A DNA stretch of 64,000 nt from Planctomycetota bacterium (GTDB taxonomy: Bacteria; Planctomycetota; PLA2; JAEUHO01). The first letter of the stretch is position 1, and each line of letters starts with the position of its first letter. Shown in pieces: positions 18,941 to 48,184 of the stretch. A model generated the notes under the pieces. That model saw only the letters and a program-made list of their open reading frames with translations, did not search any database and was not told where the DNA came from. The DNA lies in NCBI GenBank assembly GCA_965222115.1, contig CBDCTJ010000001.1:192001-256000 (forward strand), given 5' to 3'. A program made the translations under genes and the position numbers.

Positions 18941-19045
18941 TGCGCCACAAAAGCCTGGCTTTTGTGGCGCATCGGGTGGCAGCGATCGGCGACAGAGGCC
19001 CATTCGCTCCGGCGTGCGCCAGAAATACCAGGTTTATTTGGCGCT
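18941..19045. repeat. Pair of ~31-bp palindromic (REP-like) elements between convergent genes
   Basis: Perfect palindrome TGCGCCACAAAAGCC-T-GGCTTTTGTGGCGCA at 18941-18971 and a degenerate copy from about 19015; same family at 48099-48184. Confidence 0.7.
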
Positions 19046-37296: not shown

Positions 37297-37667
37297 CGAA
37301 GCGCTCCAAATCCATACTTCGCCGGGATTCTCCCCTGGCACTCAGCAAGCCGCGAGGGGAATCGGGCCGGGCTCGAAGCAGCCTCGCTCGAAGTCCGGAT
37401 TCACGTGAAGCCAACATAGCAATAACAAACTACTGGAAATTGGGGGCGGGGCACGGCTCGCATCGAAGCCGCGAGAAGGCGAGCGCAAAGCGCACCCCAA
37501 GTTGGTGCTCGCTCCCAATCTAGTCTTGCTGAGTGCACCAGTCTCAACTTCACTCAGCAATCAGAGCGATTGAAGCCACGCATCCGCCAATGGACGCTTG
37601 TGTACCCTCTACAGTAGCGAGAGAATCTGGCGAACCTATGTTGTTTGGGAATGGAGACACGAGCCAA

Positions 37668-39941
37668 ATGAGTACCCAGATCAATGATCCCTTTCTGGGT
37701 GTTCTACTGGACGGTCGGTACAGGATCGCGGAGAGACTTGCCAAGGGTGGTATGGGTTCGGTATACGCGGCCAAAGACAAGAAGCTCCGCCGCTACGTTG
37801 TAATCAAGATTCCAGCGCAACACATTGTAGACACCGAAACTGGACGCAAGCGCTTCCTGAGAGAAATCAGATCACTGCGACGAATTGAACATCCACATGT
37901 CGTACCCATTTTGGACTCCGGAGAAAGAGACGGGCTCCCTTGGTACGCGCTGCAGTTCATGCGCGGCGGGGCGCTAGATCGTCACATCCCGATGCCAGCA
38001 ACACGAAAGGGCACTCGGTGGATCTCGGAGATTGCAGGTGCGCTCGACCATTGCCACGATGGCGGAGTCCTCCATAGGGACGTCAAGCCCGCCAACATCT
38101 TGTTCGATGAACACGCGCACGCGTATATCACCGACTTCGGCGTAGCCAAGGGGGACGACACCGCCAATGGCACCCGTCTCACGAAGACCGGCATGCTCGC
38201 CGGGTCGCCTGCATACATGGCGCCTGAACAGGTGTTTGGAGGCAATGTCGACGGACGCGCGGATCAATACGCCCTCGCAGTGACGGCATACGAAGCGTTG
38301 AGTGGCGAGCTTCCATTCAAAGGTGACACCGCGATAGAAATCGCAGTCGCCAAGCGCCGGGGACAGAAGGAATCACTTGAGCGCGTAGCGCCTCACATCC
38401 ACCCCGCCGCGGGCCGAGTACTCGACATTGCAATGTCGTCAAGGCCGGACCTCAGATATCCTTCGTGTACATCATTCGCAGAGGCTCTAACGAAGGGCCT
38501 TGCCGGGGCTGCGGCTACCACAGGTGTTGCACCGCGCTCCCGTTCAAGCCGAGGAAACGAGAAGAGCAGGTCGTGGCCGCGCGCTGCATACGCCCCCGCC
38601 GCAATCGGATTTCTTGCGATGCTACTCATGTTAGTCAAGGGCAATGATATCAATTCGGGTGCAGATCCTCAACACGGAGAACCGCGGAAAGCCCAAGAAC
38701 TGGATGTCACCAACAATGCAAGCAGAGATTCGAAGACACCCCGGGAAGCATCCTCCCCTCTGTATCTAGACATTGTATCGCCCAAACCTGGCGAAATCTT
38801 CTTCCCTAGATCGTCGTTAGTGTCAGGGACTGTGCGGGGTCCCGACTTAGCTGGCCTAGCCGTTGAAGTCGATGGAATCCGGGCGGACGTCGTTACTGAA
38901 GAGGAAGATCGGGCGTCATTCGCGGCGCAACTGCCTCCGGATATTAACAGCGGTAAGCGTACAGTCCGCGTACGAGCGTGGAACATGCGAAGCATGTCTG
39001 AGGTTACAACAGATATCAACTGCAAAGTAGATTCCAAACCTCCATCAATTGACAAGATTCACTTAAGTATGGCGAATATCTCACAAAGCGCCTTAAAAGT
39101 TACCGCCTTCGCACGTGATCCAAATCTCAACTCTGTATCTGCAAATGGCGTCAAGCTGATTCAAGGCGAGCGCTCTAAGGAGTATTCCGGCATAATACGA
39201 TCGATGGAATTCGGCAGAAGGCCTTGCGAGATAAAGCTAGTTGCAGATGATCTCGGGGACAATCGCGCCACGCGACGATTGAGCATTCCAGCCATTCACA
39301 TAGACCCTGAGATACATGAGAAGTGCCATGGGCTACACTTTGTTGGGAGGACTTCGGGCGAAATTCAGTTGAGGTATTCAGGAATGCGAGCCGGTGATGT
39401 ACTTGAACTCCAGATCACGAAGACTCACTTTCAGGGTAAGACGCCGAAACAAACGTTCTTAGCGACCCCCAAGAATTCATCTTCAGGCAAGATTTCGATG
39501 GCATTCTCAGATGTACCCTCTGGAGAGTCGCGGGTCATGGCGAGGTTGTCCCGAGTTCAGGACGACACTCAATTCTCCGCAGAGCTGCTTGTAGGTCGAC
39601 TATCAGCTGACTTCTCACGACCTAAGATTTCCAAGTTGCAGAGTGTCAGCAAGAACGGCGGGGCGTGGCAAGGCTTAGCGTTTGAGTTTCAAGACAGGTC
39701 ACCAATTCTGGAGGTGACTTTCGAGACGCATGAGGGACGAGAATCAGATGGTCCACATCGAGTTAATCTGCATCCAATATTTAGAGGGAGTATGCTGTTT
39801 AGTGGTGTTCTTGAAAGACGGTTCGTCCGAGCGCCTGTGACTGGAGACAGAATGTTGGTGAGAGATTTAGCGGGTAACGTCCTTCGAATCAACCTGCCTG
39901 AAGTGTATCGAAAGACCATGAAGCGAGATTCAAAAAAGTAG
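37668..39941 (+). CDS. Membrane Ser/Thr protein kinase with C-terminal extracytoplasmic beta-rich region
   Basis: GGMGSVY, HRDVKPAN, DFG, YMAPE, then a TM helix; start uncertain (37533-37668). Confidence 0.9.
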   Translation: MSTQINDPFLGVLLDGRYRIAERLAKGGMGSVYAAKDKKLRRYVVIKIPAQHIVDTETGRKRFLREIRSLRRIEHPHVVPILDSGERDGLPWYALQFMRGGALDRHIPMPATRKGTRWISEIAGALDHCHDGGVLHRDVKPANILFDEHAHAYITDFGVAKGDDTANGTRLTKTGMLAGSPAYMAPEQVFGGNVDGRADQYALAVTAYEALSGELPFKGDTAIEIAVAKRRGQKESLERVAPHIHPAAGRVLDIAMSSRPDLRYPSCTSFAEALTKGLAGAAATTGVAPRSRSSRGNEKSRSWPRAAYAPAAIGFLAMLLMLVKGNDINSGADPQHGEPRKAQELDVTNNASRDSKTPREASSPLYLDIVSPKPGEIFFPRSSLVSGTVRGPDLAGLAVEVDGIRADVVTEEEDRASFAAQLPPDINSGKRTVRVRAWNMRSMSEVTTDINCKVDSKPPSIDKIHLSMANISQSALKVTAFARDPNLNSVSANGVKLIQGERSKEYSGIIRSMEFGRRPCEIKLVADDLGDNRATRRLSIPAIHIDPEIHEKCHGLHFVGRTSGEIQLRYSGMRAGDVLELQITKTHFQGKTPKQTFLATPKNSSSGKISMAFSDVPSGESRVMARLSRVQDDTQFSAELLVGRLSADFSRPKISKLQSVSKNGGAWQGLAFEFQDRSPILEVTFETHEGRESDGPHRVNLHPIFRGSMLFSGVLERRFVRAPVTGDRMLVRDLAGNVLRINLPEVYRKTMKRDSKK

Positions 39942-39957
39942 ACCTTGGCGAATTCGT

Positions 39958-41145
39958 ATGGCTGTTCGATTCAAAATACTAGAGGGAGCCAACAAAGGCG
40001 AGCACTATGAATATGATGCGAATTGTTCGTTCGTAGTAGGCCGTGACACCAGTAGAAGTACGCACCTAGCGGTTCCGCAAGACCAATACATGTCGCGATT
40101 TCACTTTGTGGTAGAAGTCGGAGTTGGAGAGTGCTTGATTCGAGATTGTGGAAGCAAGAATGGGTTGTTCGTCAATGATGACCGAGTTTCAGAGTGCGCA
40201 CTAAAGGATGGTGATGTCGTAAAGGCGGGGCGCACGAAGATGGTGATACGCTTCGACTCAATCCGGACAACATCTCCGCTCGAGGCAGGAATGGACGCCG
40301 TCGACGATCGATTCCATCTCATCAAACAACTCAAGGGAGCAGGGGGAGCCCGCGTGTTTCAGGCGCGCGATACGAGCACGAATACGATCGTTGCTCTCAA
40401 GTTCCTGCGATTCGACCACGACCATGGATCCGAACTCGAATCGCTGTTCCGGCGCGAACTTGATGCGGTGTCAATGCTCCGGCATGAGTGCATCGTTCCG
40501 GTGTTAGCTACCGGCATGCGAGACGACGAGGCGTGGTTGGCCGCCGAGTGGATTGAAGGCATGAATCTCGAAGAGCGCATCGAAAGCAGTTCGCTGTATA
40601 CCGAGCTTCAAGCCGTGGACCTGGGCATCCAAATTCTTGGGGCTCTCTCGTATGCACACAACAAGGGCTACGTTCATCGTGACGTCAAGCCTGCAAACAT
40701 ACTTCTGCAAGATCGACCGTGGGGAGCCAAGCCACTGCTAACCGATTTCGGACTTGCCAAGCGCGTGGGCCACGAAGACTCATCGCTCACCAGCACCGGA
40801 ACAACCAGGGGAACCCCCAGATTCATGCCCCCGGAGCAAATCATGAACAGCAATTCTGCTCGTTCAGAATCGGATCAATTTGCGATGGCGGCAACGATTT
40901 ACTACGCCGCGACGGGAAAGTGGCACTACGAGCAAGTCGACCACTCGATCTGGGAGGTCTTACTTAGTGGCCCGGTCGTACCGATTCGCATGCGACGCAG
41001 GAGCTTGAGCAGAGAACTCGAGTCCATTCTCCTACGTGCCATGGAACCTGACCCCGCTGATCGCCACTCCTCAACGGCAGAGTTTCGACGAGCATTAATT
41101 CACCATCGAGAATCGCTTGCGAGAGAGCCTAAGACTGATACGTAG
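39958..41145 (+). CDS. FHA-domain Ser/Thr protein kinase
   Basis: FHA (GR...SRFH...SKNG); HRDVKPAN, DFG, FMPPE. Confidence 0.9.
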   Translation: MAVRFKILEGANKGEHYEYDANCSFVVGRDTSRSTHLAVPQDQYMSRFHFVVEVGVGECLIRDCGSKNGLFVNDDRVSECALKDGDVVKAGRTKMVIRFDSIRTTSPLEAGMDAVDDRFHLIKQLKGAGGARVFQARDTSTNTIVALKFLRFDHDHGSELESLFRRELDAVSMLRHECIVPVLATGMRDDEAWLAAEWIEGMNLEERIESSSLYTELQAVDLGIQILGALSYAHNKGYVHRDVKPANILLQDRPWGAKPLLTDFGLAKRVGHEDSSLTSTGTTRGTPRFMPPEQIMNSNSARSESDQFAMAATIYYAATGKWHYEQVDHSIWEVLLSGPVVPIRMRRRSLSRELESILLRAMEPDPADRHSSTAEFRRALIHHRESLAREPKTDT

Positions 41146-41270: not shown

Positions 41271-42926
41271 GTGCCACGACAAGCAACCCGAGTTCTTTGG
41301 TTGTCAATCGCTCTGAGCGCCACCGTCTCGGTAGTTGCTCATGCCAAGCCCGACAACGACAAGAATGCCGCATTTAAGAAGGCGAGTGCAGCTGCAAGTC
41401 GGTTGATGAAGAAGCCGGGGGAAGGAGAGAAGAAGCTCGCGGCGATCGATGTGCTAGCAAAGGATGACTCGAAGCGCGCGACAGAGGTACTCATTCGGTG
41501 GGCCGACGTTACACATTCGCTGCGATCCAAGAAGCTTGGGCCCAAGGCCGACAAGGCCAAGAAGACCTATGACGAATTGCTTGCAAAGACGATTGCGTCT
41601 CGTGGGCGGTCGATCCCCATGTGGCCGGAGCCGATTCAAGAACGGGTAGACAAGAAGAAGGTAGCCTCCGAAGAACTCGCCGCACTCGTTCGCACGGAAG
41701 TCAATGTTGCTTCGAGACTCGCTGACGCCATTGGCAAGGTGACCAATGAAGACGCCATTGCGTGGATTGCATCGTCCGGCCTGCCGGGCCTACTCAGCAA
41801 GAAGGGTCCGCGTGAGGTTCCCGGTGCCTGTGTCTCGCTAATTCTCAAGAACGTCACCAACGATGCATCACCCGCATTGCTAAAGGCGGTGCAGTACGAG
41901 ATTACACCGCGTGCGCGCGTTCAGGCATTGGATTGGATTGCCAAGGAGTCTATTCCCGGCGCGGCGAGCAAACTCGGTGACTGCCTGAGTTCCAAATCAA
42001 TTATGGTTCGTCGCGCATGTGTACGAACAATGAAAGCGCTCAATGATCCGGTAGCGGTTCCCATGCTCATCGACGGACTCAAGTCGGCCGACGGATTGCT
42101 CGCCGCCGAGATCGCTGACGTGCTGCACAACTTCACAGGCATGACATTGGGACGCGATGCCAAGCCTTGGAAGGCGTGGTGGAACAAAGAAGGCAAAACG
42201 TGGCTCGCTGCCGAGGATAAAAAGCGACATGGCTCCTTGCCATCGAAGGGCAAAGTGGGGTTTTACGGAATCACGTCGCCCTCCAATCGCATCGTATTTG
42301 TGCTCGATCGCTCGGGATCGATGATTGCCAAGGCCAAACAGAAGGTGGCGAGCAAGGCCGGTGGCACGGCAGAGCAAGGGGGCTCCAAACAGGCCGCAGG
42401 AACCATGCTCGACTTGGCCAAACGAGAGTTGCGTCGGAGCATCAATCGACTCGATTCGCGCGTGCTGTTCAATGTGGTTTTCTACAACAGCAGCGTGGAG
42501 GTGTGGAAGAAGCCGCCGAACCTCTTGCCCGCAACCGACAAGAATAAGATCGCCGCACAGTCGTGGTTTATGCCGCTCAAACCCATTGAGTCAACGGCGC
42601 TATTCTCAGCGCTACACAAGGCACTCGAGTACGCCAACCAATACGGAAGTGACGATCGTTATGGCAAACCGGGCGCCGACACGATCTTCTTATTGTCCGA
42701 CGGCACGCCCACCAAAGAGCTAAAAGGCGCGGCCAAACTCACGGAGTCACCGCCGGAGTTAACCGACGAAGAGATCGACGCTGCATTCAAGAAATTCATG
42801 AAAGCCAACGAACTCGTGCGTTGCGTGGTCCATACCATCGGGCTCGGCCCCGCCCACAACCGCGATCTCATGCGCCGCCTCGCCAAAGCCACCGGCGGCA
42901 CCTACGTCGCCGTTGGCATGGACTAG
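41271..42926 (+). CDS. Secreted HEAT-repeat/VWA protein
   Basis: Signal peptide, HEAT-like helices, MIDAS DRSGSM, LSDG, HTIGLG. Confidence 0.85.
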   Translation: MPRQATRVLWLSIALSATVSVVAHAKPDNDKNAAFKKASAAASRLMKKPGEGEKKLAAIDVLAKDDSKRATEVLIRWADVTHSLRSKKLGPKADKAKKTYDELLAKTIASRGRSIPMWPEPIQERVDKKKVASEELAALVRTEVNVASRLADAIGKVTNEDAIAWIASSGLPGLLSKKGPREVPGACVSLILKNVTNDASPALLKAVQYEITPRARVQALDWIAKESIPGAASKLGDCLSSKSIMVRRACVRTMKALNDPVAVPMLIDGLKSADGLLAAEIADVLHNFTGMTLGRDAKPWKAWWNKEGKTWLAAEDKKRHGSLPSKGKVGFYGITSPSNRIVFVLDRSGSMIAKAKQKVASKAGGTAEQGGSKQAAGTMLDLAKRELRRSINRLDSRVLFNVVFYNSSVEVWKKPPNLLPATDKNKIAAQSWFMPLKPIESTALFSALHKALEYANQYGSDDRYGKPGADTIFLLSDGTPTKELKGAAKLTESPPELTDEEIDAAFKKFMKANELVRCVVHTIGLGPAHNRDLMRRLAKATGGTYVAVGMD

Positions 42927-43493
42927 TGCGAGCGTAAGTTCGAACTTTGGGTGCGACGCGTGATGTAGCTCTTCGTTGGCGAGCGTGGCGAGTTGATGCC
43001 CCAACCCCCTACCTCGAAGCTTGGCTCTAGCCTCATGCTGTGTCCACGCACGCCAGAATAGTCGCGGGCGATCTTCGTCGGCATATGCACCTATCTGCCT
43101 AGTCAAATCGGCGCCAAGTGTTTGAGTCGCAACGTCACCCCAATCAGGAAATGGGCGTACTTCTTCGATATCAATACCGACTTGGGCCCGATGGACGATT
43201 GCGATGGCAGCAAACGGACCGGATGAAGTTGCATTGAATCCAATATCATCGAATCCTCGCACACGCGGTTTGCCGAACTGCCCATAGTCAAAGCGAATCG
43301 CGGACGGCTCAATGTGAATTTTCGCCGCGAGTTGCTCACGAAGCCACCCACGCCGACACATCCAAAACCGCCGCGAGCGTTGATCCGAATACTGTTCGGC
43401 GGTCGCGACGTCGTCGTCCGAAAGTGTCCGTTTGAGCACGTCGTACCGTTCCATCAACTCGCCCAAACGCGTAATGAGGATTCTTGGCTTCAT
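42759..43493 (-). CDS. Sfp-type 4'-phosphopantetheinyl transferase
   Basis: GKP...FNATSSG...VGIDIE...WTQHEARAK.RGRGL; ATGA overlap with the NRPS stop. Confidence 0.8.
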   Translation of the reverse strand: MKPRILITRLGELMERYDVLKRTLSDDDVATAEQYSDQRSRRFWMCRRGWLREQLAAKIHIEPSAIRFDYGQFGKPRVRGFDDIGFNATSSGPFAAIAIVHRAQVGIDIEEVRPFPDWGDVATQTLGADLTRQIGAYADEDRPRLFWRAWTQHEARAKLRGRGLGHQLATLANEELHHASHPKFELTLALVHANGDVGAAGGFGEAAHEIAVVGGAEPDGMDHATHEFVGFHEFLECSVDLFVG

Positions 43494-46400
43494 GCACGCA
43501 CCTCACGTTCCTTGTTTGCGATCGGCTTGGTGGGGCTACCGGCGAACGTTGTGTTCGACGAGAGTCGCTCGCGCTTCATAACAACACTTTGAGGCATTAC
43601 GCACGCCCCTTCTCCGATATCTGATCCGTAGAACAGAATCGCACCGTCACGCACGGTTGCGCCCTTGCCAATGCGTATCGTATCAATCTTGAGGATGCGA
43701 TCTTCAAACGTGTGCGCCTGAAAGTGACCGCTTACCGTGGCTTCGTCGTCGATGGAAATCATGTCGGGATCCACAACTTGGGCGAAGCCACCACCAAGCA
43801 CAACGCGCTTGCCGACACGCATGCCCATCGCGCGCAGATACCACGCCAAGAACAAGGTTCCTTCGAAAGCGGACATCAAGCCTCGAATCCACGCGTTCCA
43901 ACACACGTACACGAAATCCCAGCGACAGCACCAGCATGACCACAGTGCGTGTTGTCCAGGTCGGACCCGTCCAAGCAGTGTCCATTTAAGAAATAAGACA
44001 AGGAGGCCGAGCGTGGCGGCGGCAAGGATCACGGAAACCGGCAGTAGCCACAGGAACATCTGAGTTGAAGACATCGTCGCGGATAACACGGAGACGCCAT
44101 GTAACCAAACAAGCAAGATGAACAATGGAACAATCGGGATTAGAAAGCGTAGCGACTCGAAGAAGATGCGCGTTACATACTGCACGGGCCCCGGGTCGTG
44201 CGTGAGGCGGCGATCGGCGTTCACGACTTCACGACGCGGCAATGTAAACGCGGGATGGCCGAACCACGTCGAGTCTTGTGTCATCTGCTCATCGTCGGCA
44301 ACGGTCGCCACGCCAACCAAAAGGTTGGATGGGAGTGAGCTGCCGGCGGGGACCACCGCGTGATTCCCAAGAAACGAATCGCCTCCGAGTGACGTCGCCC
44401 CATGCTCAACCACGCCTTGTCGAATCCGCGCGCCGCCAAGGTAGATTCCATCCGCAAGGAAACACTCAGAACCAAGCGCAACGGACGATGGCACGACGTC
44501 GGTGATAGTACTAATCTCAGACTTTGAGCCGACTTTCATGCCGGCGAAACGGAGCCACACAGGCCAAAACAGTGAACCGCTCAAGAGTCGCCCTACGCCC
44601 GATACGGCGTCACTTGCCAACCGATCGCGTATACGTGCCAGACTAAGATTCCAAATGACCGCTGGACGTTGATACGCCAGCAAGCGAATTGCAACGGCTG
44701 AACTCACGAGCGTTACAAGCAGAGAGACAACGATCAGGGCCGTCAACTCGCCGAAGATCCCCGCGCCGCCTGTGCCCGCAAACAGACCATCAAGCACGAA
44801 AGCGGTATCGACCCCCGGCCACGCGATGAGTAGTAGCGCGAACGGCGCATAGTAGGCCAGTGTTCCAAACGCAAACCGCGACATCATCATGGCTACGCCA
44901 TGCATCAATGGTGTCAACGGCCGATCGGGCGAAGGCTTTATCGGCGTGCCGAGACGCTCGACTCGTTTCGCCGGTACACCGTTCCATCGCTCACCATCCG
45001 GAAGCGTCTTCCCCTGCGGCAGCCACGACAGCGAAGTGAGATGCGAGTCCTCATCAAGTGTTGTGTGTGCATCGACGCCGGCACGAGTCTCAAGGACGCA
45101 TCGATCGCCGAGGGAGACAGGCCCAATGACCAGATCGCCCCGGTCGTAATCGATGAGCCGGATTGAGGCATCGCGACCAATGCACACGTCGTCGCCGATA
45201 TGGAGAAGATCCCAGCCACCGTTTCCCAGCGCCACGCCTCGGTGAATATGAACACGTTCACCGATCTGCGCCCCAAGCGCACGCAGCGCGGAACAGAAAA
45301 ACACCGTTTCTGATAGGGCGCCCCACGGGACGAATCGCGCGAGATGGGCGAGCAACCAATGCCTAAGATAAAAGCCGCTCCAGACCGGCACGCGCATCGA
45401 GCGGTAGCGGCCAATCAAAACGCGCTTTGCCAGAACGAGAAGCGCTACGGACAAGGGTGCATACAACAAAAATGCGATGAAGCTCGCTAATGGCAACGCA
45501 AGCAGCGTGGTAGTGAGTCCAAACTCATGCAGCACAAAAGGGAGTAAAAGGAAGAAAATCGCGTAGAGCGTCGCTGCACCCACAACCGTTTCTGCGAGGA
45601 GCCAAATCCCTTGACACGTCGTAACGAGCAGCGGGCGACGGCGACTCGCCATCGACGAATCGATACTTGAGACTGAGTCGTTTGAGACCGCGTCGCTTGT
45701 CGTCGCCTTCGTTGCAATCGCGTCAATCGTGCGCAACTCGTAGATATCGCGCACCGAAATGGATGCTGTACGCGGATCCTTTCGAAGCTTTGACACCGCC
45801 AGTGCCGCGCCAACGGAGTTGCCGCCTAGGTCAAAAAAGAAGTCGTCCTGGCGCCCAGCCGAAGCGCGCCCCACAGCCTCTGACACGGCACGAAACACGA
45901 CGGATTCGACATCATTTGGGCCGTCGGGCTTGGGAGTGAACTCGATCGTCGGAACAAGTAAGGAATCGCGGTCGAGCTTCCCGCTGGGTAGCGTAGGTAG
46001 CCTGTCTATCGCATAGATGCGTGCCGGCACAAGCGTTGCGGGAACACTCGTCTGCAGCCGTGCAAGAAGCGCGGCTTCGTCAATGCCCTGTGCATCCCGT
46101 TCACTGACAACAAAACCAATGAGCGCGTCGATTTCACCCAAACGACGGACACACGCGGCTGCATTCGCAACGCCAGGAAGCCTCGTGAGATGCGCCTCGA
46201 CTTCTTCAAGTTCAATGCGATGACCGTGCAACTTGACTTGCGCGTCCATGCGACCCAAGTAGTAGAACGCGCCGCTTGCATCCTGACGCACACGATCCCC
46301 TGTGCGATAGATACGCCCATGTTTCGGGTGAACCGGAAATCGCGCTTGCGTGAGTTCGTCACGATCCAGATAGCCGCGCGCAACCCCCACGCCGCCAATC

Positions 46401-47476
46401 ACGAGTTCTCCCTCCACTCCGTTCGCACATGGCGTGAGATCCTCATTCAGCACACGGGCCATCGTCCCTTCAACGGGAACGCCTATGGAGATCTCTTCAC
46501 CTTTTCCGATGTCGGCCCGCAACGTCGTGACCGCGCATTCCGTGGGTCCATAGCCGTTGACGAGGCGTCGCCCAATCGACCATGCATCTGCGATGTCACG
46601 CGGCAGCGGCTCGCCGCCCACATACATCAGCCGAATACCTGGCAACTGCTCATGCGGCGCGCTTACGTCCAGCGTTCGCAGCAGTGTTGGCGGAGGACAA
46701 AAGACGGTTATCTGCTCTTCCCGTAGCCAATGGGTTAGGTCAGGACCCCCGCGAACCGTCTCGTCATCCAATACAACAACTGCAGCACCGACCGATAACG
46801 CAAGCCATGTTTCCTCGACCGACGAGTCGTAGGCATGCGACGATCCTTGCGCCACGCGATCGTGTGTATCCAAACCAAAGTGATTTCGATCGGACTCAAC
46901 GAGATTGACAATGCTCCGATGTTCGATCAACACACCCTTGGGCTTTCCAGACGTTCCGGATGTGTAAATCACATAGGCAAGATCCGATGCGGAGGGTGTA
47001 AGGCTGCCCTCAGCATTTGTTATCGACAAGGGTTGTGAACTCTCGTCCACACTCGGAGGAACGACAATATCTTCAGCGGGAATACCTAGTTGCGTCAGCC
47101 GTGAAGCACCCTTCTCATCCGCGACAATCAGCATAGGCGACGCGTCTTGTATGAGGTCCGCAAGCCGTGCATCGGGATAGCTTGGCTCAAGCGCAAGAAA
47201 CGCCCCTCCGGACTTGAGCACAGCCAACTCTGTCGCAAACAGCGCAGGATCGTCGCGTGGAATCAAAATGGCAACGATCGCGTCGCTCGTCACTTGCGGA
47301 CATAGGCGGTTGGCTATTGCATCGGACCACGCGTCAAAGTGCGCATACGTCACGGTCCTACGTCTCACCCGTGTCGCCGCAGGTGGAACCTCAATCGCAA
47401 CACGATTCGGATATTGCCGAACCGTCGATCGAAACACGTCAACCAGCGTCTGAAAGGGAACCGTGCCTGAAGTCAC
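43490..47476 (-). CDS. Pls/PosA-family membrane-bound single-module NRPS (A-T-6TM with three LbH-containing domains)
   Basis: YTSGTSGKPKG, YGPTE, YRTGD, PSGKLDR; PCP motif DLGGNS; six TM helices; QAHTFEDR; GTG start at 47476 overlaps the SET gene stop. Confidence 0.88.
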   Translation of the reverse strand: MTSGTVPFQTLVDVFRSTVRQYPNRVAIEVPPAATRVRRRTVTYAHFDAWSDAIANRLCPQVTSDAIVAILIPRDDPALFATELAVLKSGGAFLALEPSYPDARLADLIQDASPMLIVADEKGASRLTQLGIPAEDIVVPPSVDESSQPLSITNAEGSLTPSASDLAYVIYTSGTSGKPKGVLIEHRSIVNLVESDRNHFGLDTHDRVAQGSSHAYDSSVEETWLALSVGAAVVVLDDETVRGGPDLTHWLREEQITVFCPPPTLLRTLDVSAPHEQLPGIRLMYVGGEPLPRDIADAWSIGRRLVNGYGPTECAVTTLRADIGKGEEISIGVPVEGTMARVLNEDLTPCANGVEGELVIGGVGVARGYLDRDELTQARFPVHPKHGRIYRTGDRVRQDASGAFYYLGRMDAQVKLHGHRIELEEVEAHLTRLPGVANAAACVRRLGEIDALIGFVVSERDAQGIDEAALLARLQTSVPATLVPARIYAIDRLPTLPSGKLDRDSLLVPTIEFTPKPDGPNDVESVVFRAVSEAVGRASAGRQDDFFFDLGGNSVGAALAVSKLRKDPRTASISVRDIYELRTIDAIATKATTSDAVSNDSVSSIDSSMASRRRPLLVTTCQGIWLLAETVVGAATLYAIFFLLLPFVLHEFGLTTTLLALPLASFIAFLLYAPLSVALLVLAKRVLIGRYRSMRVPVWSGFYLRHWLLAHLARFVPWGALSETVFFCSALRALGAQIGERVHIHRGVALGNGGWDLLHIGDDVCIGRDASIRLIDYDRGDLVIGPVSLGDRCVLETRAGVDAHTTLDEDSHLTSLSWLPQGKTLPDGERWNGVPAKRVERLGTPIKPSPDRPLTPLMHGVAMMMSRFAFGTLAYYAPFALLLIAWPGVDTAFVLDGLFAGTGGAGIFGELTALIVVSLLVTLVSSAVAIRLLAYQRPAVIWNLSLARIRDRLASDAVSGVGRLLSGSLFWPVWLRFAGMKVGSKSEISTITDVVPSSVALGSECFLADGIYLGGARIRQGVVEHGATSLGGDSFLGNHAVVPAGSSLPSNLLVGVATVADDEQMTQDSTWFGHPAFTLPRREVVNADRRLTHDPGPVQYVTRIFFESLRFLIPIVPLFILLVWLHGVSVLSATMSSTQMFLWLLPVSVILAAATLGLLVLFLKWTLLGRVRPGQHALWSCWCCRWDFVYVCWNAWIRGLMSAFEGTLFLAWYLRAMGMRVGKRVVLGGGFAQVVDPDMISIDDEATVSGHFQAHTFEDRILKIDTIRIGKGATVRDGAILFYGSDIGEGACVMPQSVVMKRERLSSNTTFAGSPTKPIANKEREVRA

Positions 47477-48012
47477 TCGTCGTAGATTTGCACAATGTGC
47501 GGACTCAAGAGGTGCGCAATGCGTTTGCGTTCGGGATGACTGAGGTGCATGAATCCGCGGATCTTCTGTTGGCGACACGTTGGCCTCTGACATTCGCAGA
47601 AAAACGGCTCGGCGATTTCAAGTTCCGTCGTGTTGTAGTCAAACGTTAGCTCATCGCCCTCCGCGATGTCGTCAATCGCAATGACTTCGGGCGCAGCAAT
47701 CCGAACCGTGGGCGCGCAACTGTGATTGAGAAAGCGCCAGGGGTAGGGGTGGCGTCCTGCCGCTTCCGAATCACCGACACACGCATCGAGATGTAATCGG
47801 CTGCCAATCTGTATGGACCAACGAGTGGGTAAATTCGTCAGTGTTCCTGCCAATTGGAGGACGACCTCGCCGGAACGAAATCCACGCGATGCAAAGAGCC
47901 CGAATTGCCCACTTTCCTTTCGCCGGACGTGCACGCCACTGGCCTCGGTTTGATAGGGAGACACCTGGCCCATCTCGTTCATCCCAGTTTTGCAGTCTTC
48001 GGAGATTGACAT
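47473..48012 (-). CDS. SET-domain (lysine methyltransferase-like) protein with post-SET Cys motif
   Basis: FGLFA, FLNHSCAP, GDELTFDY, CECQRPTCR. Confidence 0.88.
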   Translation of the reverse strand: MSISEDCKTGMNEMGQVSPYQTEASGVHVRRKESGQFGLFASRGFRSGEVVLQLAGTLTNLPTRWSIQIGSRLHLDACVGDSEAAGRHPYPWRFLNHSCAPTVRIAAPEVIAIDDIAEGDELTFDYNTTELEIAEPFFCECQRPTCRQQKIRGFMHLSHPERKRIAHLLSPHIVQIYDE

Positions 48013-48098: not shown

Positions 48099-48184
48099 GC
48101 GCCAAAAATACCTGGTAATTCCGGCGCACCCCATAGGTCGACTTGTTGCGGCGTGCGCCAGAAATACCTGGTATTTGTGGCGCA
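48099..48184. repeat. Second pair of ~31-bp palindromic elements, in the divergent SET/tpiA intergenic region
   Basis: GCGCCAAAAATACCTGGTAATTCCGGCGCA and TGCGCCAGAAATACCTGGTATTTGTGGCGCA; 48150-48168 is identical to 19011-19029. Confidence 0.7.

Follow-up and report, generated by a model that had tools for sequence, protein, structure and literature searches.

A SET-domain methyltransferase gene tied to a distinct clade of Pls/PosA-type synthetases: a possible tailoring step in a cationic poly(amino acid) pathway

The SET-NRPS-PPTase operon

The 64,000 nucleotides (nt) examined here, referred to as the window, come from a Planctomycetota bacterium (assembly GCA_965222115.1, contig CBDCTJ010000001.1, positions 192,001 to 256,000). 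On the reverse strand, the window contains an operon of three genes, which encode a SET-domain methyltransferase, a single-module nonribosomal peptide synthetase (NRPS) of the Pls/PosA type, and a 4'-phosphopantetheinyl transferase (PPTase) (Table 1). These genes form a tightly coupled unit: the stop codon TGA of the SET gene shares four nucleotides with an in-frame GTG of the NRPS gene, and the stop codon of the latter shares four with the ATG of the PPTase gene. A first-pass annotation of the window had described the same chain; all three open reading frames (ORFs) are present, and both overlaps can be read directly in the sequence. A 4-nt start/stop overlap is also possible in 26 out of 68 SET-NRPS pairs from elsewhere. 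The longest open frame of the NRPS extends upstream of the GTG, but tblastn similarity to its relatives starts at the GTG (query starts 1-25, with the query cut at residue 41), which supports this start codon and a protein that is most likely 1328 amino acids (aa) long.

Table 1. Coordinates of the operon and its parts (position 1 is the first nucleotide of the window).
Feature	Position	Strand	Remarks
SET-domain methyltransferase gene	47473..48012	-	179 aa; first gene of the operon; PF00856, 40.9 bits
Pls/PosA-type single-module NRPS	43490..47476	-	1328 aa from GTG; Pfam and TIGR02353
NRPS, longest open frame	43490..47593	-	1367 aa; begins at ATG at 47593
Adenylation domain	45977..47434	-	residues 54-539 of the 1367-aa frame; PF00501, PF13193, TIGR01733
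Thiolation (carrier) domain	45713..45892	-	PF00550; DLGGNS phosphopantetheine site in the translation
C-terminal Pls/PosA region	43532..45616	-	three pairs of transmembrane helices and three soluble domains in alternation; TIGR02353
Sfp-type PPTase	42759..43493	-	244 aa; PF01648, 36 bits
GTGA overlap, SET stop / NRPS start	47473..47476	-	read in the sequence
ATGA overlap, NRPS stop / PPTase start	43490..43493	-	read in the sequence

Architecture and specificity code of the synthetase

The NRPS begins with an adenylation (A) domain, recognized as AMP-binding (PF00501, E 4.8e-66) and AMP-binding_C (PF13193) by Pfam and with 373.7 bits by TIGR01733 (cut-off 317.4), and continues with a thiolation (T) domain (PP-binding, PF00550; 22.6 bits, cut-off 20.8). 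A canonical condensation or thioesterase domain is not found by Pfam at E <= 0.01. The C-terminal region possesses six transmembrane (TM) helices, predicted by a Kyte-Doolittle scan as three pairs at residues 631-681, 868-930 and 1112-1162 counted from the GTG. An A-T didomain with a C-terminal membrane region is the layout of the Pls/PosA family, and the corresponding model TIGR02353 is matched over practically its whole length (positions 2-694 of 695), with a score of 379.2 bits that lies under the curated cut-off of 423.1. The A-T-6TM architecture of the first-pass annotation is therefore retained; of the left-handed beta-helix (LbH) content that it gave to three domains, only a faint trace is seen, a single Hexapep match under the cut-off (20.3 bits vs 27).

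Some relatives carry a longer NRPS. At locus L061 (10400-11476), the frame is extended by about 350 aa, which form a membrane domain that matches DUF418, Acyl_transf_3 and HGSNAT_cat, and the frames at L036, L109, L128 and L146 are similarly long. This extension could be a fused trans-membrane acyltransferase, that is, a second amine-tailoring activity in the clade.

The ten positions of the Stachelhaus code were located by motif in the alignment, following a positional rule that we take to be correct, and read DSECYGGVTK in the window. The same ten letters are printed in PMC10522769 (Commun Biol 2023) for OFZ39577.1 (Bdello_A), a homolog from a 'Bdellovibrionales bacterium' among the synthetases of cationic homo-poly(amino acid)s (CHPAs). 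According to that paper, all CHPA synthetases share Asp at position 1 of the code and Glu at position 3, and position 2 sets the chain length. The NRPS of the window has both acidic residues (D235 and E239), which supports the acidic pocket noted in the first-pass annotation. The string YDSSVEETW, given there as the specificity pocket, is only in part what it was taken for: its D and its first E are code positions, and the remainder belongs to the A4 core motif. The code is not of the lysine or ornithine type, for which DAESIGTVVK and DMEHNGTVSK are read in other genomes of the same phylum.

DSECYGGVTK is exact in 53 of the 58 aligned rows with all ten positions; of the other five, two read DSECYGGITK, one DSEAYGGVTK and one DSECYGGVVK, and the last is a misaligned fragment. 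The code is likewise exact in all six readable NRPS copies that are unlinked to SET, and in 15 out of 16 further members from a phylum-wide sample (see below). In a FastTree phylogeny of 74 full-length proteins, these sequences are parted from the enzymes with other codes with 100% local support, and 53 positions are conserved in the clade (>=93%) and different in all three other-code enzymes. Several of these residues, located in the C-terminal domains, are aromatic (Trp, Tyr or Phe); none is a clade-specific lysine. With TIGR02353, clade members score 324-409 bits, versus 604-722 for classical members of the same phylum. Alignment and tree thus assign the NRPS to a clade of the Pls/PosA type that is distinct, monophyletic and widespread; since its score fails the curated cut-off and its code is neither that of lysine nor that of ornithine enzymes, we treat it as a distinct clade to which no product is assigned.

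Bdello_A is the sole member of this clade for which we found biochemistry in the literature searched. As far as the available text of PMC10522769 goes, only its isolated A domain was assayed; activation was modest with L-arginine and no higher with Lys, Orn, 2,4-diaminobutyrate (Dab) or 2,3-diaminopropionate (Dap), and the authors suggest a larger substrate analog. The monomers proposed in the first-pass annotation, namely Lys, Orn, Dab or Dap, are therefore probably not the substrate. The same passages of PMC10522769 report no product, gene neighborhood or SET partner for Bdello_A.

A further question is whether the clade polymerizes at all. The NRPS might move one activated cationic amino acid to a lipid, polyamine or cell-envelope acceptor, with SET modifying the conjugate or its precursor. 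Such a role would agree with the scores under the TIGR02353 cut-off, with the 53 clade-specific residues, many of which are aromatic and lie in the C-terminal domains, and with the fusion of some relatives to an acyltransferase-3/HGSNAT-like membrane domain. Furthermore, arginine has no primary amine in its side chain that could serve as the nucleophile for Pls-style isopeptide growth. However, the A-T-3x(TM pair plus soluble domain) layout of the proven polymerases is kept from end to end, and a conserved partner gene that would provide another acceptor was not found, so that we regard a non-polymerizing NRPS as highly improbable.

Linkage of SET and synthetase genes across genomes

For the SET family, 26 proteins were aligned (that of the window and 25 from a protein search), and the resulting profile was run against one genome per species. 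It retrieved 231 encoded relatives, of which the best 80 loci were analyzed. In 54 of these 80, tblastn detects an NRPS immediately downstream on the same strand; this includes L055, where the NRPS is a truncated remnant. The recurrence of this gene order in 54 out of 80 loci is far beyond chance. The pairs come from at least seven phyla, six of which could be named: Planctomycetota, Verrucomicrobiota, Actinomycetota (Lentzea, Amycolatopsis, Actinocrispum), Pseudomonadota, Armatimonadota and Acidobacteriota. As for the 26 loci with no NRPS downstream, two have too little downstream sequence to be judged, and the remaining 24 SET genes lie in unrelated housekeeping contexts. Among 20 searched genomes with a non-adjacent SET gene, seven possess an NRPS elsewhere. 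No fused SET-NRPS protein was scored, which is weak evidence. Nor is a third gene conserved across phyla: ORFs that flank the pairs with a long match in the C-terminal region cluster by lineage only, the largest cluster comprising eight loci.

In a close sample of 61 genomes (that of the window and 60 relatives), the NRPS is present in ten. In the window, SET lies directly upstream of it, and the same holds for a second genus in each of its three genomes; in a further genome (G016), both genes are present on different contigs, and in five of the ten SET was not found. A reciprocal sample comprised 401 Planctomycetota genomes, each at least 85% complete. Because kin are not independent, its results are given as counts, with no statistical test. 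TIGR02353 matches occur in 27 of these genomes: 22 are of the window type, one is a fragment, and four are classical, with the codes DMEHNGTVSK (two genomes) and DAESIGTVVK (one) and one truncated copy. Those with the PosA code (L135 and L137, in G229 and G243) are predicted to be delta-poly-ornithine synthetases; the lysine-type code is that of L133 (G199). The scores of the SET profile are bimodal, with 17 genomes at E <= 6.5e-49 and the next best at 7.5e-27. All 17 genomes with a strong SET match carry a window-type NRPS, 15 of them adjacent and two (G102, G255) on other contigs, and none of the four genomes with a classical Pls/PosA enzyme has one. SET is thus genetically tied to exactly the DSECYGGVTK clade.

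Conserved linkage was the check that the first-pass annotation itself had proposed, and its outcome is strongly positive, in the SET loci as well as in the strong-SET genomes; the possibility that the adjacency is unique to one genome is contradicted by its recurrence in at least six named phyla. One might still object that the kin are not independent and that many loci stem from related metagenome-assembled genomes (MAGs), in which case the adjacency would be fortuitous or reflect only the shared ancestry of close relatives. Against this stand the same spread over phyla, the flanking genes that differ between lineages, and the co-occurrence that persists where the genes are unlinked; the chance of a fortuitous adjacency appears negligible.

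The converse dependence is not observed. Five of the 22 genomes with a window-type NRPS (G032, G033, G242, G251 and G365) have no strong SET match; they are 87-95% complete, four of them 91-95%. On the NRPS tree, seven rows have no SET in their genome (four of these five, plus L028/G007, L031/G002 and L138/G251), and they are scattered among SET-bearing rows, such that the presence of SET requires six changes, at least four of which are forced by well-supported branches. The seven rows keep the clade code or, in L028, DSECYGGITK, and they keep the clade-specific residues, with single-row exceptions at 15 of the 53 positions. The distribution in the genomes therefore indicates that SET depends on the NRPS clade, but the NRPS does not depend on SET. 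The dedicated SET step of the first-pass annotation survives as a tie to this clade, but not as something that every clade member needs, and SET would be an accessory step rather than a defining one.

Directly upstream of two of the SET-less NRPS genes, other genes are found: in G033, a D-Tyr-tRNA deacylase gene (L029:2335-2766) abuts the NRPS start, and in G007, there is a gene for an M54 archaemetzincin-like peptidase (L028:10746-11804). We also noticed signs of decay. In Amycolatopsis sp. NPDC058986, only a truncated AMP-binding remnant follows SET (L055:6440-7117), and the SET gene of G282 contains an in-frame TAA (C7:25335-25799).

The PPTase and the surroundings of the operon

The PPTase matches PF01648 (ACPS) above its cut-off of 25 bits, and HetI- and AcpT-like NCBIfam models match below their cut-offs. 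Its assignment to the Sfp type is based on this domain and on its size, which is that of two-lobed enzymes of about 230 aa. Two further ACPS genes occur in the genome; their open frames are short (132 and 152 aa). PPTase homologs lie downstream of the same NRPS at L026, L120, L122, L123 and L124, and a PPTase follows the NRPS in four of the seven genomes with an unlinked NRPS; in the 80 SET loci, no homolog of the window's PPTase is detected at E 1e-5. The 3' end of the gene overlaps the 3' end of a convergent HEAT/VWA gene by 168 nt (42759-42926). The C-terminal tail of the protein aligns poorly with its homologs, hence the true stop or the frame in this part is uncertain.

The flanks are unremarkable, with a divergent tpiA as well as secG, yicC and gmk upstream of the operon. 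Downstream follow the convergent HEAT/VWA gene (41271-42926) and, beyond it, two Ser/Thr kinase genes side by side (37533-41145), the second with an N-terminal FHA domain. None of the 19 neighboring ORFs scanned belongs to a peptidase family, in agreement with the first-pass statement that no Pls-associated aminopeptidase is nearby. A 29-nt palindrome, GCGCCAnAAATACCWGGTATTTnTGGCGC, lies twice between SET and tpiA (48155-48183 and 48099-48127) and once at 19016-19044. The genome holds 61 copies with at most three mismatches, often in clusters of two or three, versus none for the reversed control. The palindrome looks like an intergenic element similar to repetitive extragenic palindromic (REP) sequences and not like an operator specific to the SET-NRPS operon.

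The SET protein and its relation to BurB

The match of the SET protein to PF00856 exceeds the cut-off of 22.4 bits, and the motifs WRFLNHSC and TFDYNTTE as well as a post-SET cysteine cluster C-x-C-x4-C characterize it as a member of the SET-domain family. W92, N96, H97, C99, Y126, C139 and C141 are invariant among the 26 aligned proteins, and C146 nearly so. The best sequence match in the PDB is BurB, with E 1.3e-8 for the single sequence and 9.2e-19, over most of the protein, for the family profile; the best histone methyltransferase in the profile search has 6e-13. An AlphaFold model built from the alignment (pLDDT 87, pTM 0.82) leads to the same relative: in Foldseek, BurB occupies ranks 1-3 (E 1.8e-11, TM-scores 0.64/0.70), and histone SET domains come next (about 1e-8, TM-score about 0.5).

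According to PMC12542666, BurB is a SET enzyme of 172 aa that S-methylates free methionine and binds the amino acid through contacts of the main chain. The first-pass view of SET domains as amine methyltransferases is accordingly too narrow. BurB and the SET protein have in common the Q/H strand, an NHSC-type motif, the Tyr of the catalytic site and the C-x-C-x4-C cluster, and further strands are alike (PSRYSIQ vs CRLHTLQ, TTE vs STE); identity in the fold search, however, is only about 25-28%. What is more, Ser88 of BurB, which lies between substrate and S-adenosylmethionine (SAM), aligns with the invariant W92 of the SET family. Among the 19 neighboring ORFs scanned, none belongs to the aminotransferase or decarboxylase families, which are neighbors in the dimethylsulfoniopropionate (DMSP) pathway and which we take to be the kinds of BurI and BurD. 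Because W92 replaces Ser88 and such neighbors are not found, we down-weight methionine S-methylation as the function of SET. It resembles a small-substrate enzyme of the BurB type whose nucleophile would differ and probably be nitrogen; N-methylation is assumed in view of the canonical NHSC and FDY motifs and of W92. Phe124 is located at what is presumably the Phe/Tyr switch of lysine methyltransferases, for which reason SET may methylate more than once. The genome of the window contains a second SET-domain gene (G000:C7:853954-854208; PF00856, 38.6 bits), which is not among the strong matches to the family.

The likeness to BurB raises the possibility of an obligatory precursor supply, in which SET makes a methylated cationic amino acid (N-methylated lysine or arginine, or S-methylmethionine) that is the true and only substrate of the A domain. 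BurB acts on a free amino acid held by backbone groups (PMC12542666), and its strands are conserved in the SET family; the A domain with the same code is poorly active on the standard cationic amino acids, with a larger analog suggested by the authors (PMC10522769); and SET is the first gene of the operon and translationally coupled. On the other hand, the clade genomes without a strong SET are largely complete at 91-95% in four cases out of five, and in them the NRPS gene is undamaged, its branches are long and interspersed with those of SET-bearing relatives, and the code and the clade residues are retained, whereas an enzyme that had lost its substrate would be expected to degenerate or to change its pocket. 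The one-sided dependence agrees better with an accessory tailoring, and an obligatory supply seems unlikely to us.

Another conceivable target is a protein. SET could be a lysine methyltransferase that acts on the synthetase or on another protein, for regulation or stabilization, and the product would then be unmethylated. The canonical motifs with histone lysine methyltransferases as the next-best matches, the tight coupling, which would give near-equimolar synthesis, the dispensability of SET, and the SET relatives in genomes where no Pls-type gene was found are all compatible with this model. It is opposed by the lack of a clade-specific lysine at the 53 NRPS positions, by the minimal size of 179 aa with a closest relative, in sequence and fold, that acts on a small molecule, and by the phylum sample, in which SET never occurs without a window-type NRPS (17 of 17); we consider it decidedly unlikely. 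The net charge of the SET proteins has a median of -2 both with and without an adjacent NRPS and so carries no information; co-folding of SET with the A-T didomain, in two runs without controls, gave a score of 0.00, which speaks neither for nor against binding.

Proposed pathway

SET is best read as a dispensable accessory methyltransferase of a cationic poly(amino acid) pathway. According to this model, the PPTase would prime the T domain of the NRPS, and the amino acid that the A domain activates would be long and cationic, arginine-like or a bulkier analog; D235 may hold the alpha-amine and E239 the cation of the side chain, and Y299, G301 and G322 would make the pocket wide and less polar. 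As in Pls and PosA, the C-terminal domains would link the units to form a cationic oligo- or poly(amino acid), and SET would use SAM to methylate the amino-acid building block of the pathway as a dispensable tailoring. Genomes with SET would thus make a methylated product and genomes without it a plain one. We infer both the polymer production and its methylation in the SET-NRPS clade, and we hold the optional, SAM-dependent methylation of a building block of the cationic oligo- or poly(amino acid) with moderate confidence, at about an even balance.

Where in the pathway SET would act can be narrowed down less well. A released oligomer, polymer or chain end is a tentative candidate. The free amino acid, which stays a candidate in view of the likeness to BurB and of the cytoplasmic location, provided that the A domain accepts both forms, is a somewhat doubtful one. 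A more far-reaching version would make SET an N-methyltransferase of free amino acids in the manner of BurB, whose methylated and perhaps permanently charged monomer is used by the clade as a repeat unit or as a chain-end cap; this would define a new class of methylated polycationic polyamides, made by a mobile two-gene cassette that occurs in at least six named phyla, including cultured strains of Lentzea and Amycolatopsis. We regard this version as rather doubtful.

Several observations weigh against the model of an accessory methylation in a polymer pathway. Product, polymer or methylation has been observed for none of the members of the clade, and the sole published A-domain assay gave modest activity only. 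The TIGR02353 score falls short of the curated cut-off, and the missing side-chain amine of arginine speaks against growth in the style of Pls. To our knowledge, no SET enzyme methylates guanidines; moreover, BurB is an S-methyltransferase, so that N-methylation by SET is an assumption. Finally, 13 of the 20 searched genomes with a non-adjacent SET relative, which are MAGs of unknown completeness, yielded no Pls-type gene, which suggests that some family members have another role.

Comparison with known systems

Cationic homo-poly(amino acid)s, of which epsilon-polylysine is an example, find commercial use as antimicrobials. The analysis defines a large, phylogenetically coherent clade of synthetases that is still without an assigned product, together with a dedicated partner from the SET class, for which the literature searched gives no earlier connection to NRPS-like polymerases. 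As the first-pass annotation had stated, no described Pls cluster with a SET partner was found in this literature, which did not extend to subscription journals. Cultured strains carry the pair, among them Lentzea aerocolonigenes NBRC 13195, Lentzea nigeriaca DSM 45680 and Amycolatopsis pigmentata CGMCC 4.7645, and the chemistry is therefore directly testable; if the model is true, it would add a further small-molecule role of bacterial SET enzymes to that of BurB.

According to PMC10522769, six cationic homo-poly(amino acid)s were known before that study added a seventh. The closest known systems are Pls, the epsilon-poly-L-lysine synthetase, and PosA, the delta-poly-L-ornithine synthetase of Acinetobacter baumannii. 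Both share with the NRPS of the window the A-T module, the six TM helices, the three soluble domains, the lack of classical condensation and thioesterase domains, and the two acidic code positions, 1 (D) and 3 (E). They differ from it in the code as a whole, which is DSECYGGVTK in the clade, DMEHNGTVSK in PosA and of the DAES...-type for lysine, with Ser, Met (PosA) and Ala (Pls), respectively, at position 2. PosA is described as a single-gene operon in PMC10522769, whereas the clade of the window has a SET partner. Bdello_A shares the identical code.

The SET protein finds its counterparts in BurB of Burkholderia thailandensis and MSMT of Streptomyces mobaraensis, two SET methionine S-methyltransferases of the same minimal size of about 170-180 aa; the partner of BurB, however, is the bur assembly line and that of the SET protein a Pls-type NRPS. 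The integrated N-methyltransferase domains of NRPSs likewise carry out a SAM-dependent methylation of an NRPS building block. Those domains have a class I Rossmann fold and are inserted in the A domain, whereas the methyltransferase of the operon presented here belongs to class V (SET) and stands alone, with a gene of its own that overlaps that of the NRPS.

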